DNA of 64,000 bases from a virus. The position numbers and the translations under genes are program-made. The notes under the pieces are model-generated. The model was not told the origin of the DNA, searched no databases, and saw only the letters and a program-made list of their open reading frames with translations. The stretch is taken from UHGV virus genome UHGV-1366990. One strand, 5' to 3'. Below are positions 229 through 6,593 of this stretch, one piece after another. Every line of letters begins with the position of its first letter. Position 1 is the stretch's first letter.

Positions 229-243
229 GTTCCTGTCCACGAA

Positions 244-280
244 AAAGGGATAGAGCAATAATACCCTATCCCCTTTTATT
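244..280. terminator. GC hairpin (gggatag/ctatccc) followed by T-run; putative intrinsic terminator
   Basis: Inverted repeat 247-253/266-272 with ttttatt after; sits between two minus-strand genes. Confidence 0.35.
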
Positions 281-289
281 GAAGAACGA

Positions 290-703
290 TTAGTCTTCAG
301 ATTCTACTTTGCCGCCTCGTAGATCCCGAACTGGTTTACCGTCCGGTGTCATCACATAAATGGTGTTGATTGTCTCAAACCAAGACAGCTGGTCAACACC
401 CTCGGTGTATGGAGTCACCGGAACAGAAGTCTTGACCTCTTTGCCTTTCGTGTTCGGATGTTCAACCACATCCAAGAACGCACATTTCCCGCTCGGAAGG
501 ATCACACCATCAGTAAACAGCACGATCTTCTTGCGAGGGTTGCTGGCCTCACCCAGGCACACCACCAGATGATGGATCATCTCGGGGCGGTCAATCAACA
601 TGTCGTCTTTGATAATCCCTTGCTTGATAGCAGAGATCACCACCTCATCCAACAGAGCCTGCTGTTGGTCCAGTGTCAGGGATTCAGTGAGTTTCACGCT
701 CAT
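290..703 (-). CDS. hypothetical protein (137 aa from internal ATG; ORF track extends to GTG at 772)
   Basis: ORF 290..772; ATG at 703 has AAGG upstream and avoids overlap with LemA gene. Confidence 0.5.
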   Translation of the reverse strand: MSVKLTESLTLDQQQALLDEVVISAIKQGIIKDDMLIDRPEMIHHLVVCLGEASNPRKKIVLFTDGVILPSGKCAFLDVVEHPNTKGKEVKTSVPVTPYTEGVDQLSWFETINTIYVMTPDGKPVRDLRGGKVESED

Positions 704-707
704 GACA

Positions 708-1277
708 TCAGCCTTTGAAGTTAATCGGTTTCTGAATACCAGCGTCGAACGCGGCCTGGGTACGGGTATCACTCACCACCTGGCAGGTCTTGTCAAGGTC
801 GATACGCGGGTAGCCGAACATGCCAGCAATCAACGAACCAGGGAACTGAGCCAGCTTGGTTTCGTATATTGTGCAGATATCCAGCTTCTTGGTCTGGCTG
901 ATGCGGAATTCATCACGCCCAGAACTGATCACCACCTGGATCTCTTTGTACAGGCTGGAATCGAACTGAATATTCTGCTCCTGGATCCACTGCATGACGG
1001 CCTTGGAACCATCAGCGCCATAACGCCCTTCGAACGTGCCTTTGATCACTTCCTTCAGGCCGTCTTTATACATGTCAGGAATCTGCGCCGTCTCCTGAAC
1101 TTTGAGCGTGTAGTTGCTCAGGTAGTTCTCGGAGTCTTTGTTGAACTTCTTGACCTGCTGCTCAGTGCGGTTGAAGTCGTTGAAGTAGCTGATGACTGTG
1201 CCAATGCCGAGAATCACTACGCCCAGCAAAGCCAAACCAACTATCCAACCTGTTGCGATACCCTTAGATTGAGACAT
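708..1277 (-). CDS. lemA: LemA-family membrane protein
   Basis: 189 aa; N-terminal TM helix, C-terminal ...YETKLAQFPGSLIAGMFGYPRID resembling LemA signature; AGAGGAAG RBS. Confidence 0.6.
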   Translation of the reverse strand: MSQSKGIATGWIVGLALLGVVILGIGTVISYFNDFNRTEQQVKKFNKDSENYLSNYTLKVQETAQIPDMYKDGLKEVIKGTFEGRYGADGSKAVMQWIQEQNIQFDSSLYKEIQVVISSGRDEFRISQTKKLDICTIYETKLAQFPGSLIAGMFGYPRIDLDKTCQVVSDTRTQAAFDAGIQKPINFKG

Positions 1278-1295
1278 TCTTACTTCCTCTTTTGA

Positions 1296-2411
1296 TTAAA
1301 AATTAAACGGATAACGACGACGGCCACCATTGTACTCCATTCGCTGTAATATGAAAATTGCGGTGAACGGCAGACAGCCTAGCAGAACAACAATCACAAC
1401 TTCCCAGGTCTTGAGTTCCCGCCACTTCAGGTACTCCATTTCCTTCATCTCAACGCGGTTGTAGCCTTTGGTGATGTTAGCGACAACATCAGCCATGACA
1501 CCGACACCCATGTCGTGGCCTGTGAGAGCCATGCCATTGCGAGAATGGAGTTCACGGTTGTGCATACCATCAGCGAACGAAGTGCTCTTGCCCCAGTTGA
1601 TCTTCAGGTCTTTGTTGATGTCGGTCACGACGATAACGTCGTTCTTTTTACCACCATCCCAAGCATAGACCAAGCCCTGGAAGTATTCAACTGGCTGGCC
1701 GGAAGTCACAACCCAGACGATGTTCACCTGCTTGGCTGCGCCCAGCTTCTTCAGGGCATCGTTCAGATAGTCGTTCCAGTATGTGGTCGGTAACGCCAGA
1801 CCAGACACATTCAGTACACGAGTGACGCGATAGTAGTCATAGACTTCGGGATACTTCGGAATCTTGTCTTTGAAGCGCTCAGCAAACTGCTGGTCTGAAC
1901 GAGAGAACAGAGAGTCCTTGTTACCCAGCACATAGTTCATGTAGGAATGCTCACGGGCTGCGGGTTCGCCGATCTGAACCTGCGCCCAGCGCGGGGGCTG
2001 ACCAAGGCCGCGACGATCAATGCGGTCAATCGTCAGATTACCGACAGTCGTCAACACATCCCAGTCCACGTCATATGAATGCTCATAACAGGTGCTGCAA
2101 TGGCGGGTACGGGTGCAGGACTTACTACTGCCGGAGCCAGAGCACGATGTGGTGTAGTAGCAGTTGCATTCATATGAATGCTCACAGCTCACCTTATTCC
2201 GCTCCTTTGCAGTGACGTACCCGTTCAGGATCTCAACATCCCCTGAACTGCCAAGGGAGAACGCAGCATAAGTCCCCGCCTGAATCAGACAGGATAGCAA
2301 CACTACAATCGCGGTCGCTATCAGAGTCTCTTTCGGCTCATGGGTCTTGCGGTGGTAGGTCACAAACAGGATAGCCAGTACCAATGGCACACCAAACAGG
2401 AGGTAGATCAT
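1296..2411 (-). CDS. Cys-rich membrane protein with TM helices at both ends (possible LemA partner)
   Basis: 371 aa; N- and C-terminal hydrophobic helices; cluster CEHSYECNCYY..CSGSGSSKSCTRTRHCSTCYEHSY; start overlaps upstream gene (ATGA). Confidence 0.55.
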   Translation of the reverse strand: MIYLLFGVPLVLAILFVTYHRKTHEPKETLIATAIVVLLSCLIQAGTYAAFSLGSSGDVEILNGYVTAKERNKVSCEHSYECNCYYTTSCSGSGSSKSCTRTRHCSTCYEHSYDVDWDVLTTVGNLTIDRIDRRGLGQPPRWAQVQIGEPAAREHSYMNYVLGNKDSLFSRSDQQFAERFKDKIPKYPEVYDYYRVTRVLNVSGLALPTTYWNDYLNDALKKLGAAKQVNIVWVVTSGQPVEYFQGLVYAWDGGKKNDVIVVTDINKDLKINWGKSTSFADGMHNRELHSRNGMALTGHDMGVGVMADVVANITKGYNRVEMKEMEYLKWRELKTWEVVIVVLLGCLPFTAIFILQRMEYNGGRRRYPFNF

Positions 2412-2626
2412 TTGGATTCACCGACGAGCTGCGCCTTGGTCATCCCAAGGAGTTGATCTTTATGCTCAGGATTGGCACCGTTCTTTAACAACAAATCCCA
2501 ACGCTCTTCATGGTACTGTGGGTCCAGTGCTTCATCAAATGTGATGTGGTGGCGGAACATAATAGTTGCCACTGAATGGACACAGTGAGCGATTGCGCGC
2601 TTCATTGTTCGGGTATTCTTGATCAT
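2408..2626 (-). CDS. hypothetical protein (72 aa)
   Basis: ORF with GGGGGA RBS; stop overlaps start of downstream gene. Confidence 0.45.
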   Translation of the reverse strand: MIKNTRTMKRAIAHCVHSVATIMFRHHITFDEALDPQYHEERWDLLLKNGANPEHKDQLLGMTKAQLVGESK

Positions 2627-2723
2627 TTGGATTCCCCCATGACGATAACGGAAGCACCAAAAGCCGCTTCCATGTTGAGTAGGGACATATCTTCAATTCG
2701 TTGCATTGCCATGATATAGGACC

Positions 2724-2915: not shown

Positions 2916-2940
2916 AAAATCGATCCTTGCAAAAAGAAAG

Positions 2941-2980
2941 GGGAACGGGCTAATAATAACCCATTCCCCTTTATTGAAGG
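2941..2980 (-). terminator. intrinsic terminator hairpin (ggggaa..attcccc) with T-runs on both sides
   Basis: Stem-loop followed by ttcttttt on minus strand, tttatt on plus. Confidence 0.4.
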
Positions 2981-2997: not shown

Positions 2998-3165
2998 TTA
3001 CTTTTTCTTCAGCTCTTCCAGTTTGGCTTCGATTTGTTCTAAGATATCTTTACCCTTCTGAACAATCACTTCACCATCTTGCGCGTGTTTACGGAAGACC
3101 AGAGCGCCAGCGATGAAGCCGACAACCGCGCCAGGAAGCGCATAAACCAGCAGATCTTGTAACAT
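2998..3165 (-). CDS. small membrane protein (55 aa; MLQDLLVYALPGAVVGFIAGALVF...)
   Basis: Below ORF-track length cutoff; ATG at 3165 with GAGGA 8 nt upstream; one predicted TM helix then charged helix. Confidence 0.4.
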   Translation of the reverse strand: MLQDLLVYALPGAVVGFIAGALVFRKHAQDGEVIVQKGKDILEQIEAKLEELKKK

Positions 3166-3201
3166 GATAATATCCTCGCTTTATAGGCGAGGATATTTAT
3201 A

Positions 3202-4437
3202 TCAGCGTTTCAAGAGTGTCATGAGGTTGACGCTGCTGGACTTCGGCTTGTCCTCAACCTTGCGCACAGGCATCTTCAGGTTTGTGTAGACCTCGGACGG
3301 TTCCCAGCGCGTACCCTTTTGCAGGTGCCAGATATGTAGAGGAACACCAGTCTCAAAGAACACAGGCATCTTCCACTTCTGGACGCCTGGAACGTGCCCT
3401 GTAGGAGCCTTTTCACATAACAGGGTATCTGGCAGCCAGAGCGAACGGGCTTCCCAGAGCGCTGCGCAGGAGTATTCAGGCCAGACGCGTTCCATGTAGT
3501 CTATCTCATCCCAGGTACGCTCTGCGTCCCACCCGATGTAACGGGTATTCTTCAGTCGGAAGAATTTCTTCAGCCAACAAGCACCGGAGGTTTCAAAGTT
3601 CAGGCGGTTGATGAACGTCAGGTGCCCGAACTCAGCCACACAATCCTGGAACGCCTGCTCAAGGTCGGCCTCAAGGATGTCACACTCTTCATCCGTGATA
3701 GGACAACCGTTGATCTTTTTCTTCCCGTGTTTAGTCACCCAATCGTCACGGTTGGACAAGAACGCCGCGCCATTACGGTTGGACTCGCTTCCATCACGAT
3801 CACGCAGCATGAAGCCAGGGACGTCAATGGTGTATTCGTTCCCGAAGACCATGTTCAGGGCTTCCAGGAAGTTCCAGGCGCTCAGGCGACCGAAGTATTT
3901 CCAGGACATCGCCGTGTCCCACAGCTGGGTGAATTGTTCTGTCTTATCGATGCACACCAACATCCCACGGAAAGCGTCATATTGAGTACGGCCAGCCAGC
4001 CAGTCAATATAGGACTGAACACACGGGATCATCTTGGACTTGCGGTAGCGACAGTCGGTATCGAATCGCATGCGATCAAAGTTCAGATTATACCAATCAG
4101 AGAAGCGCTGCATCTCTTCTTTGGACTGGGGTGGTACAGGGAACTCACTGTAGATCGTCCACGGCCCGACAGCGTTATAGCAACAACCCCACAGGAATGC
4201 CATCCAGATCTTGCGCTCGACTTTCTGTTCGAGACTGATGCCTTCAGTGACTTCGATCGCATAGTCCATCAGACGCATCTGCTGGTTGTGCTCTTCTGTG
4301 TAGGACAGCGCCTCCACCCAAGCCTTGAGCAGGTACATACGATTCTCAGGCTTGCGATAATCAACAGCCAGGTCAATCGGGTACTTCCATTCAGTCGGAG
4401 GCTTATAGCCCGTCGGCATTTTAGATAAATGATGCAT
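3202..4437 (-). CDS. hypothetical protein (411 aa); candidate nucleic-acid modification enzyme
   Basis: Long ORF with GAGGAAG RBS; Trp/Cys-rich; no motif I can name with certainty. Confidence 0.6.
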   Translation of the reverse strand: MHHLSKMPTGYKPPTEWKYPIDLAVDYRKPENRMYLLKAWVEALSYTEEHNQQMRLMDYAIEVTEGISLEQKVERKIWMAFLWGCCYNAVGPWTIYSEFPVPPQSKEEMQRFSDWYNLNFDRMRFDTDCRYRKSKMIPCVQSYIDWLAGRTQYDAFRGMLVCIDKTEQFTQLWDTAMSWKYFGRLSAWNFLEALNMVFGNEYTIDVPGFMLRDRDGSESNRNGAAFLSNRDDWVTKHGKKKINGCPITDEECDILEADLEQAFQDCVAEFGHLTFINRLNFETSGACWLKKFFRLKNTRYIGWDAERTWDEIDYMERVWPEYSCAALWEARSLWLPDTLLCEKAPTGHVPGVQKWKMPVFFETGVPLHIWHLQKGTRWEPSEVYTNLKMPVRKVEDKPKSSSVNLMTLLKR

Positions 4438-4994: not shown

Positions 4995-6593
4995 TCACCC
5001 CTTCTTCATCAGGTCAAGGAGAGAGCGCGACGCTGCCTTCGTTGCTTCTGGCTGGGCGCTCGCCTTGGTTTTAGTTTTGGATGCCTTCTGCGGCTTCTCA
5101 GGCACTCTGTGCGCCAAAGGGTTGCTACCCTTAATCTTGCGCAACATTGGTGTGGTGTCGCAATATTTTTGAAACTCTTCTTTGGACAACCCTCTCAATC
5201 CAACAAAATCTATAATAAAACTACCAATAAAGTGGAGAGGGGCATCGAAGAATTTCAGTATATTCCAACCAACTGCCTTTACACCATTTTCATTCGCTGC
5301 CTTTGCAATGAACAACTCATTCTGAGAGTCTGGTTCAAGTTCGTATCCGATGGAAGCGTACTCACCCATGATCTTGACGTGATCCTTGGTGTATTGTTCA
5401 TTTCTTCCCCAGCCAGTGTCCTTCGCCGCCTTACCAGAACGACCGATGATACGTTTGTCGTAATCTTCCCGCGCTTGGTAAATAAAGGAGATGAATGCCA
5501 TGTTGTTGAACCCCAAGTCCTGGTGTACGAACTCGGGACGCCATCGATGACTCTGCATCATAGGTTCCCCCTCCAAGATGATAGTTGCATCTTTGAACTT
5601 TATTTTGAGATACTTCAACAACGAATTGGCCATCTCAGAAGACTTGAGAGTGGAGTGTATGAAATCCATGGAAGTCCATGATGCTAGACCTGATTTGTTG
5701 GACACTGTATACTTGCCGATGAACACCAGATTGATTTCCTTGAACCAAAACCCAACCTGGATCATCTTCTTGTCGAATTCGTATTCTATGAGTTCTGGCT
5801 CATATTTGGTTCTCAACCACTCAAGGAATTGAACGACACGAGTCCCCTTTCCCGTTCCACTTGTCCCGCGAATAACGACAATACCCGGCGTCACGCTAGA
5901 ATTTATCATAGTCATAAAACGTTTGTCCTCTTTGGGAATCCAACCATCTTTAAACATGGCGATCATATTACGAAAGACGCTCTCATCGCCCTTTAGATTA
6001 CGATACTCTGTGTCCAGTAGTTTAGAATACCACAATCCGATAGATTTGTAACCACATCCTCGTTTTGGCATACTGGTAGGATTCACAGTACCGCCGTTGT
6101 TCACCCATCTATCATAGATCCTACGGGCGTCCTTCCAAACCCACCAATAACCATTTGAAACCATGAATGGGTAGGGAGAATTACCCCTGTTCTCCTTTAT
6201 TGATTTTATTACACGTTCCCGGTATTCTGGATCATCCCAAGGATTTATACCAGATTTGTATTTCTTGCCAGTCCTAGCCAACGCCGCCTTAAATTGGTTT
6301 GGTATGATAGAATTGTCTCCTCCCAATTTCAGGTTCAGACATAACGGGTCCGACAGCAACTCATCCGTAACAATAATAGACTCCAGGTCGGATGCTTCCA
6401 ACCTGGTTTCAAACTTTTCTATTATCGTCTTTGAAAATTCAGAAGCGGGATGGGATTCCAACAACCTTTTGATGATCACACCAGAACCCATATAGGGGTC
6501 TTGTTCAGGAGCACATGAACAAGACCGAATCCCGACGTAGAATCTACCTGTGGGAACATGAGTTATCCTATAGGTGTAATGGTAACGAATCAC
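4995..6593 (-). CDS. GIY-YIG nuclease-like N-terminal domain fused to P-loop NMP-kinase-like domain
   Basis: 532 aa; N-term YTYRITHVPTGRFYVGIRS (GIY-YIG-like); later GTSGTGKGT (GxxGxGKGT P-loop); GTG start overlapping upstream stop. Confidence 0.6.
   Translation of the reverse strand: MIRYHYTYRITHVPTGRFYVGIRSCSCAPEQDPYMGSGVIIKRLLESHPASEFSKTIIEKFETRLEASDLESIIVTDELLSDPLCLNLKLGGDNSIIPNQFKAALARTGKKYKSGINPWDDPEYRERVIKSIKENRGNSPYPFMVSNGYWWVWKDARRIYDRWVNNGGTVNPTSMPKRGCGYKSIGLWYSKLLDTEYRNLKGDESVFRNMIAMFKDGWIPKEDKRFMTMINSSVTPGIVVIRGTSGTGKGTRVVQFLEWLRTKYEPELIEYEFDKKMIQVGFWFKEINLVFIGKYTVSNKSGLASWTSMDFIHSTLKSSEMANSLLKYLKIKFKDATIILEGEPMMQSHRWRPEFVHQDLGFNNMAFISFIYQAREDYDKRIIGRSGKAAKDTGWGRNEQYTKDHVKIMGEYASIGYELEPDSQNELFIAKAANENGVKAVGWNILKFFDAPLHFIGSFIIDFVGLRGLSKEEFQKYCDTTPMLRKIKGSNPLAHRVPEKPQKASKTKTKASAQPEATKAASRSLLDLMKKG

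Follow-up and report, generated by a model that had tools for sequence, protein, structure and literature searches.

Genes for LemA proteins and for membrane proteins with a TPM domain form a widespread bacterial gene pair that has no assigned function. In both bacteria that we sampled, Thermotoga (the family of the crystallized LemA) and Neobacillus, the LemA gene is directly followed by an overlapping TPM_phosphatase gene, and the TPM partner consists of a signal peptide, the TPM domain, a transmembrane (TM) helix, and a Gly/Arg-rich tail. Here, we describe two neighboring genes in a 64,000-nt stretch of the virus genome UHGV-1366990 (the window; coordinates are counted on the whole of it), which encode membrane proteins of 371 and 189 amino acids and, as judged by profile and fold comparison, represent a diverged copy of this whole pair that is fixed in about 490 large lytic phages. 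The original prediction made for this DNA, which saw a LemA-like protein next to a Cys-rich membrane protein, had stated that LemA proteins usually pair with membrane partners in bacteria, and the TPM-domain proteins of Thermotoga and Neobacillus are indeed such partners.

TPM proteins have been proposed to be chaperone-like assembly factors of membrane complexes and, according to comparative genomics, not phosphatases (PMC11237479, PMC12419801). The TPM auxiliary subunits include Psb32/TLP18.3 for photosystem II (PSII), CcoZ for the cbb3 oxidase, and AscF in the complex III–complex IV supercomplex (PMC11237479, PMC12419801, PMC8267372, PMC13456599), and CcoZ is needed for the activity of the cbb3 oxidase (PMC8267372). 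MamQ is required for magnetosome membrane formation and has been described as the sole LemA member tied to any process (PMC4902198, PMC3905215). Moreover, lemA and a TPM gene were induced in a membrane-stressed Flavobacterium mutant (PMC13236525). Our literature search found nothing addressing the function of the phage pair.

The LemA-like protein and its TPM-domain partner

All genes of interest lie on the minus strand, with the 371-aa gene upstream and the 189-aa gene downstream:

1296..2411, minus strand: gene of the 371-aa TPM-domain inner-membrane protein (PHROG phrog_2087, E 1e-162)
708..1277, minus strand: gene of the 189-aa LemA-like single-pass membrane protein (PHROG phrog_1383, E 5e-86)
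1185..1253, minus strand: N-terminal TM anchor of the 189-aa protein, residues 9–31, the hydrophobic start of the first helix of the AlphaFold2 (AF2) model
795..1208, minus strand: LemA-homologous region of the 189-aa protein, residues 24–161, including IYETKLAQFPGSLIAGMFGY (hhalign columns 24–161 against LemA 24–178; 2ETD alignment)

Because of the strong PHROG matches and the orthologues annotated in 97%-identical phages, we regard both open reading frames (ORFs) as real genes. In LIMEstone1, the orthologues are ORF194 (371 aa) and ORF195 (189 aa), annotated solely with putative transmembrane domains.

Single-sequence searches of both proteins against Pfam, NCBIfam, PADLOC, and PDB sequences gave nothing above threshold and otherwise chance matches. 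Against Pfam LemA (PF04011), the 189-aa sequence scored 13.7 bits (E 0.056), which is under the gathering threshold of 26.2 bits, and sub-threshold matches were found in 8 of 45 homologues (best E 0.0016). A profile built from 45 homologues gave one meaningful match in PDB, the Thermotoga LemA structure 2ETD (E 5e-4), with profile positions 32–160 aligned to chain residues 10–155 over nearly the full length. This match covers the hallmark C-terminal motif of LemA (Y-x-x-x-I/L-x-x-F-P-x-x-x-x-A-x-x-F-G-F/Y), as IYETKLAQFPGSLIAGMFGY of the 189-aa protein was aligned with KYNTAIKKFPGVIFAKMFGF of 2ETD. We also gathered a reference alignment of 25 genuine PF04011 proteins, using the 2ETD sequence as a query; hhalign matched it to the 189-aa family with a probability of 97% (E 1.2e-10) over 137 columns. 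Thus, the profile comparisons identify the 189-aa protein as a genuine but divergent, remote LemA homologue. The LemA assignment of the original prediction, which had been made to depend on a match to LemA profiles, therefore stands at the profile level; the single sequence does fail against Pfam, and profile-level searches alone rescue the assignment.

The AF2 model of the 189-aa protein has a predicted local distance difference test score (pLDDT) of 83 and helices at residues 9–64, 68–82, 87–100, 108–143, and 147–154. In this model, an N-terminal TM helix continues into a helical bundle, in keeping with the LemA-type architecture of a short N terminus, one TM helix, and an all-helical domain of ~150 aa. 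The phage LemA-like clade comprises 1558 representatives at 50% identity. A weak PADLOC LeoBC match (E 3e-4), which spanned the TM and the first helix, was discounted as compositional. GenBank already lists 121Q gp69 and the Turkey5 and ph0011 proteins as "LEMA protein", and UniRef assigns the Klebsiella phage May protein to "LemA family".

The label of PHROG 1383 is "virion structural protein", and the same label is found in the RefSeq records of LIMEstone1, Ea35-70, GAP32, and others, which would make the 189-aa protein a component of the particle. However, ORF195 is absent from the 39-protein mass spectrometry table of the LIMEstone1 virion, the sole proteome checked, and the original LIMEstone1 record called it hypothetical; the CBA120 paper offered nothing relevant to this question. 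The membrane anchor, the homology to bacterial membrane proteins, and the pairing with a three-TM protein also argue against a virion component, and one record that says "major capsid protein" points to label drift. We consequently rejected this reading as extremely improbable, given a protein that appears to be a membrane-anchored LemA homologue missing from the virion proteome.

From N to C terminus, the 371-aa protein comprises a hairpin of two TM helices, a beta domain rich in Cys and His, a domain with the TPM fold, a third TM helix, and a basic tail:

2352..2408, minus strand: TM helix 1 (AF2 helix, residues 2–20), with essentially no charged residues N-terminal of it
2250..2336, minus strand: TM helix 2 (AF2 helix, residues 26–54)
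1932..2249, minus strand: Cys/His-rich beta domain with long AF2 beta hairpins, about residues 55–160, predicted to be periplasmic
1422..1829, minus strand: TPM-fold domain (by fold similarity), about residues 195–330, with the motif W251-x-GGKKNDVIVV
1299..1409, minus strand: C-terminal TM helix (AF2 helix, residues 335–357) and Arg-rich tail NGGRRRYPFNF, predicted from its charge to be cytoplasmic

None of the four sequence collections gave a match to the 371-aa protein, and its family profile gave no useful match in PDB sequences. Pfam TPM_phosphatase (PF04536) did not match the protein at E ≤ 0.1, while weak matches were present in 8 of 42 homologues (best E 1.8e-4). The AF2 model (pLDDT 89.2) contains helices at residues 2–20, 26–54, and 335–357, a beta-rich part at 57–158, and an alpha/beta part at about 199–330. 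The latter has the alpha/beta/alpha sandwich fold of TLP18.3, Psb32, and cg2496, and the model thus identifies the C-terminal half as a TPM-fold domain. The TPM core motif is W-G-x-G...N-G-V-L-L after the first beta-alpha unit; a weak hhalign alignment (probability 16%) sets W251-DGGKKNDVIVV of the phage family on WGIGQKEKNNGVLLLV of the bacterial LemA partners, and the aligned hallmark segment, which is likewise weak, reads QVNIVWVV...YFQGLVYAWDGGKKNDVIVV versus AQVVVVVV...EYANRLFREWGIGQKEKNNGVLLLV. Within the TPM-like family, the GGKKND motif and D192/Y193 are invariant or nearly so. For the beta domain of ~100 residues, searches of Pfam and PDB sequences detected no relative. It bears C76, H78, C82, C84, C90, C99, C105, C108, and H111, and two further Cys lie inside TM helices.

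The dense Cys cluster expected for this protein is therefore present, with seven Cys at 76, 82, 84, 90, 99, 105, and 108. TM helices are found at both ends as anticipated, although there are three (2–20, 26–54, and 335–357) rather than two. Of the two partner families suggested for comparison, TPM is borne out by the fold, whereas DUF2207 was rejected, as it matched neither the protein nor any of the 42 homologues at E ≤ 0.1.

Because genuine LemA genes directly precede TPM genes in bacteria, these assignments show the phage pair to be, as far as profiles and folds tell, a strongly diverged phage version of the bacterial LemA–TPM inner-membrane module.

Topology, cysteines, and a candidate metal site

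Charge statistics for the TPM-like family were obtained from 120 homologues. The loop between TM1 and TM2 (YHRKTHEPKE in the window protein) carries on average 2.1 Lys plus Arg (net +0.6) and the C-terminal tail 2.9 (net +1.1), while acidic segments (net −1.4 after TM2 and −0.5) border the large domain. The loop and the tail are accordingly predicted to be cytoplasmic, and the beta and TPM domains periplasmic. In the LemA-like family, the net charge is +1.3 in the few residues before the anchor and −0.4 in the 15 residues after it, and the LemA-like domain is predicted to be periplasmic as well. Together with cysteine pairs that are kept or lost as a whole, this charge bias is what places both soluble domains in the periplasm. 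The prediction agrees with the non-cytoplasmic helical domain predicted for LemA/MamQ (PMC3905215). The helix order in a 553-aa fusion of the two proteins (see below) puts the TPM and LemA-like domains on the same side of the membrane.

783..875, minus strand: Cys135 (873..875) and Cys165 (783..785) of the 189-aa protein, predicted disulfide, all-or-none in the family

Among 230 members of the LemA-like family, 94 have both Cys (73 of them at exactly 30-residue spacing), 132 have none, and 4 have one. This all-or-none pattern predicts a C135–C165 disulfide. In the beta domain, all seven Cys together with H78 and H111 are kept in 90 of the 120 homologues, and losses are coordinated: C84 and C105 are lost jointly in 12 sequences, C90 and C99 in 6, and C108, H78, and H111 in 5. 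These joint losses suggest C84–C105, C90–C99, and, by elimination, C76–C82 disulfides, and they also suggest that C108, H78, and H111 form a Cys-His2 site, possibly a metal-binding one.

A metal site in a periplasmic domain would fit an enzyme, in which the TPM domain, with or without the Cys-His2 site, is a phosphatase or nucleotidase that depends on metal and acts on a substrate in the envelope or periplasm and the LemA-like protein serves as its anchor or regulator. Besides the covariation of C108, H78, and H111, the near invariance of GGKKND and D192/Y193 speaks for catalysis, and weak phosphatase/ATPase activities have been reported for TLP18.3, Rv2345, and BA41, according to the passages of PMC13456599 and PMC11237479 that cite them. 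The literature is divided on a phosphatase or metal-binding role of TPM domains (PMC13456599, PMC12419801). However, recent analyses hold TPM domains to be generally non-phosphatase (PMC12419801, PMC11237479), and AscF binds neither metal nor nucleotide (PMC13456599). Moreover, the putative metal site is not part of the TPM domain, and the GAP32-like subgroup has lost it. We consider an enzymatic role quite improbable.

Conservation of the pair and its genomic setting

A tblastn search of phage records gave 486 with the TPM-like gene and 498 with the LemA-like gene. By host genus, the counts (TPM-like/LemA-like) were 168/166 for Salmonella, 63/63 for Escherichia, 55/54 for Klebsiella, 29/29 for Erwinia, 26/25 for Aeromonas, 23/23 for Acinetobacter, 22/22 for Serratia, 22/22 for Vibrio, and 19/19 for Dickeya. 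The carriers among the matches listed are phages that exceed 100 kb in size. Those with both genes are Ackermannviridae, T4-like Aeromonas and Sinorhizobium phages, T5-like Pectobacterium phages, ICP1, Acinetobacter 104-kb phages, RaK2/GAP32/121Q-like and Ea35-70-like jumbo phages, and Bacillus phage G, while the Prevotella Lak megaphages gave LemA-like matches only. In 185,579 species genomes, the pair clade was found at just 22 loci, mostly on contigs of metagenome-assembled genomes (MAGs), and the clade thus appears to be essentially phage-borne. The loci of the Achromobacter and Variovorax isolates had one RecA/UvsX-like neighbor and otherwise no PHROG match in the context scan.

Of 28 loci examined, 26 had enough flanking DNA to be judged, and a contig end truncated the other 2. 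In 23 of the 26, the two genes are either adjacent on the same strand (22 loci) or fused (1 locus). The TPM gene comes first in 20 of the adjacent loci and the LemA gene in 2, and the genes overlap in GAP32, DU_PP_V, phiM7, and 121Q. In the fused case, a metagenomic contig contains a continuous 553-aa TPM+LemA ORF. When all operon ORFs of the window were compared by BLAST with five distant phage loci, no third partner gene was found, and just the two genes were conserved; the 72-aa and 137-aa operon ORFs described below were not conserved beside the pair in distant phages. Hundreds of large virulent phages carry the two genes as a single unit.

This breadth bears on superinfection exclusion, the other role originally proposed, in which an inner-membrane pair would stop the entry of secondary phage DNA in the manner of T4 Imm/Sp. 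The predicted inner-membrane location with periplasmic ectodomains would suit such a role, and so would the position of the genes in an accessory and DNA-metabolism region, outside the structural block. Exclusion proteins, however, are usually lineage-specific, while the pair is kept across unrelated phage families, injection machines, and hosts (from Ackermannviridae to Bacillus phage G and the Lak megaphages) and descends from a housekeeping-type bacterial module. Its broad occurrence among unrelated phages and hosts therefore makes exclusion unlikely.

Gene context was also informative on lysis timing, that is, a role of the pair as an antiholin, a holin regulator, or a spanin-like component. 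The outline of the LemA-like protein (N-terminal anchor, helical periplasmic domain, and cysteines) is that of an i-spanin or antiholin, the T5-like phage DU_PP_V has its endolysin gene ~2 kb away from the pair, and no holin had been found among the 12 predicted membrane proteins of CBA120 (PMC3184105). On the other hand, the 189-aa protein is homologous to LemA and not to Rz, its partner is not an outer-membrane lipoprotein, and the Cys pair is missing in over half of the LemA-like family. The pair is not near lysis genes in the window, GAP32, 121Q, phiM7, or ICP1, and the same module occurs in bacteria with no link to lysis. As the pair is homologous to a bacterial module and shows no consistent linkage to lysis genes, this role is disfavored, and we regard it as very improbable.

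Two observations concern the loci of other phages. The order LemA then TPM, as in bacteria, is that of Bacillus phage G (gp142/gp144) and of one MAG contig, and the contig with the fusion carries a Gad2-family gene and a metallophosphatase gene as neighbors. In the RaK2-like jumbo phages GAP32 and 121Q, TelA-like ("toxic ion resistance") and metallopeptidase genes lie directly upstream of the pair, and these genes may form a larger envelope-related cassette with it.

Over its first 6 kb, the window is 97–98% identical to Escherichia phages vB_EcoM-ZQ1 and YX22 and other Agtrevirus-like phages and ~90% identical to Dickeya Limestonevirus phages, and these identities assign the source phage to the ViI-like Ackermannviridae (Aglimvirinae), as a large lytic enterobacterial phage of Agtrevirus-like type. 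The pair is part of an operon bounded by two terminators, in a genome region of accessory and DNA-metabolism genes and not in the structural block:

2937..2972, minus strand: intrinsic terminator preceding the operon, a hairpin (−26.5 kcal/mol, z −7.7) with a U run after it
2623..2712, minus strand: 29-aa ORF that ends in an ATGA overlap with the start of the 72-aa ORF
2408..2626, minus strand: 72-aa ORF of the same operon (PHROG 16350, E 2e-54), whose stop overlaps the start of the 371-aa gene (ATGA, 2408..2411)
1278..1295, minus strand: intergenic spacer of 18 nt between the 371-aa and 189-aa genes, with the Shine-Dalgarno sequence GAGGA at 1285..1289 (read directly from the sequence)
290..703, minus strand: 137-aa ORF, the last gene of the operon (PHROG 4236, E 1e-74), which begins 4 nt past the stop of the LemA-like gene
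241..277, minus strand: intrinsic terminator hairpin closing the operon (−23 kcal/mol, z −6.0), with a U run
600..1295, plus strand: 231-aa ORF entirely antisense to the LemA-like gene, regarded as a shadow ORF, as nothing indicates that it is a gene

The GAGGA lies 8 bases ahead of the ATG of the 189-aa gene. The two genes had been described as translationally linked; we found them closely linked within one operon across an 18-nt spacer with a Shine-Dalgarno sequence, but without overlap, and the 371-aa gene comes first on the minus strand. The PHROG 4236 match to the 137-aa ORF starts at an internal ATG. In Salmonella phage vB_CECAV_050, a 74-aa ORF is annotated at the position equivalent to the 29-aa ORF, which may therefore be a truncated remnant of a longer one. 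Both flanking hairpins have TTCAATAAA(A)GGGGA as their 5' context, resemble each other in an A/T-rich apical loop, and may be copies of one repeated terminator element. The upstream hairpin is 21 nt ahead of the first ORF, so transcription must read through it. No sigma-70-like promoter was found inside the operon, and a literature search found no Ackermannviridae transcriptomes.

Upstream of the operon, the following features were noted on the minus strand:

2998..3165, minus strand: ORF of 55 aa encoding a single TM helix and a charged coiled-coil tail, with a strong terminator downstream of it
3202..4437, minus strand: 411-aa protein with an amino acid:DNA transferase domain (Pfam ADDT, E 7e-60)
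4995..6593, minus strand: 532-aa protein with a homing-endonuclease-like N terminus and a 5-hydroxymethyldeoxyuridine (5-hmdU) DNA kinase C terminus (phrog_314; Pfam HMUD2)

The 55-aa ORF could be a small membrane effector, perhaps holin- or antiholin-like. The sole exact T4-late-type TATAAATA of the window lies upstream of it (3194..3201, minus strand); a single match in the window is not above chance expectation, and in LIMEstone1 a late promoter is annotated at the corresponding position. In the 532-aa protein, phrog_314 matches residues 3–227 and a full HMUD2 domain residues 236–531 (E 4e-156). Relatives label it just "homing endonuclease" (F-LimXI), which masks the kinase domain, and the 411-aa ADDT protein is "hypothetical" in related genomes. 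The presence of an ADDT transferase together with a 5-hmdU kinase indicates a putative thymidine-hypermodification gene cluster. A tie between the pair and these neighbors was rejected, as the pair is present in phages without them.

Function and comparison with known systems

The overall best explanation, which we hold to be on balance probable, is that the pair is a phage LemA–TPM module with both soluble domains in the periplasm; for its role we favor, with lower confidence, an inner-membrane complex for envelope or membrane-complex homeostasis during infection. Envelope remodeling, one of the roles originally proposed, is compatible with the evidence. More specifically, and only tentatively, we propose by analogy with the TPM auxiliary and assembly subunits and with MamQ in membrane invagination that a heteromeric inner-membrane complex supports membrane-complex or envelope integrity in infection. 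The 371-aa and 189-aa proteins would assemble into this complex, the TPM ectodomain would dock on inner-membrane protein complexes or on the membrane itself, and the LemA-like scaffold would stabilize or reorganize these complexes or the membrane, so that the envelope and the energy supply would be kept functional until lysis. The TelA-like and metallopeptidase neighbors in RaK2-like phages fit with an envelope-stress theme, and the conservation from enterobacterial to Bacillus and Prevotella phages suggests a universal membrane-level target.

Several points weigh against this explanation. Both phage proteins, in contrast to their bacterial counterparts, score below the Pfam LemA and TPM thresholds, and the hhalign comparison of the TPM-like family with four bacterial LemA partners was weak (probability 16%, E 0.0016). 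Four TPM-like loci, on high-GC or other MAG contigs, have no detectable LemA-like neighbor, and the evidence for fusion comes from a single metagenomic contig. The topology and the disulfides are predictions, and some TPM proteins are cytoplasmic, such as AscF (PMC13456599), so the side of the membrane cannot be read from the TPM analogy. Last, the bacterial LemA–TPM module is itself uncharacterized, and the function proposed for the phage pair is inferred by analogy with other systems.

The same homeostatic role could take a more particular form, in which the pair is a general auxiliary module that keeps the energy-transducing complexes of the host inner membrane (respiratory chain, ATP synthase, or translocases) working during infection, and the beta domain with its Cys-His2 site is a periplasmic metal or redox sensor or a docking element. 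The pair would then be the heterotroph counterpart of the cyanophage psbA/PSII-repair genes, with a TPM ectodomain related to Psb32/TLP18.3, which are repair factors of PSII. We consider this form unlikely; if true, the long-unexplained bacterial LemA–TPM module would become genetically accessible for the first time, by way of phages.

The main value of the phage pair lies in a corrected annotation and in a tractable entry to the LemA–TPM question. The propagated labels "virion structural protein" and "major capsid protein" are corrected, and the so far unnamed PHROG 2087 receives a name. Phage copies, which we take to be dispensable by design and highly expressed, could reveal the role of the module, be it membrane-complex assembly, envelope homeostasis, or another, and the predicted topology, disulfides, and possible metal site are directly testable.

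With respect to known systems, T4 Imm/Sp and the Rz-type i-spanins are small phage-encoded inner-membrane proteins with periplasmic domains. They are functional analogues only, as no sequence or fold relationship was found, and they occur across a much narrower phylogenetic range than the phage LemA–TPM pair. Compared with TLP18.3, Psb32, MOLO-1, CcoZ, and AscF, the phage TPM protein has just 11–16% sequence identity and differs by its three TM helices and the added beta domain. MamQ of magnetotactic bacteria resembles the 189-aa protein in having an N-terminal anchor and a LemA-type helical domain that is predicted to be non-cytoplasmic (PMC3905215); the two are likened by architecture, and MamQ differs in its long cytoplasmic N terminus and in having magnetosome-specific partners instead of a TPM protein.

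The closest system is the bacterial LemA–TPM operon, as exemplified by the Thermotoga LemA TM0961/2ETD with its downstream TPM_phosphatase gene and by the Neobacillus mesonae pair. The order of the genes is reversed in phages, with TPM then LemA in 20 of the 22 adjacent loci. In the phage TPM protein, an N-terminal TM hairpin replaces the signal peptide of the bacterial partner, a Cys/His-rich beta domain of ~100 aa with no detectable relatives is added, and the long Gly-rich tail is missing. Both systems nevertheless combine a single-pass LemA protein with a membrane-anchored TPM protein whose C-terminal end is a TM helix followed by a basic tail, and both encode them in adjacent or overlapping genes on one strand, the relationship being one of profile-level homology for LemA and of fold-level similarity for TPM.

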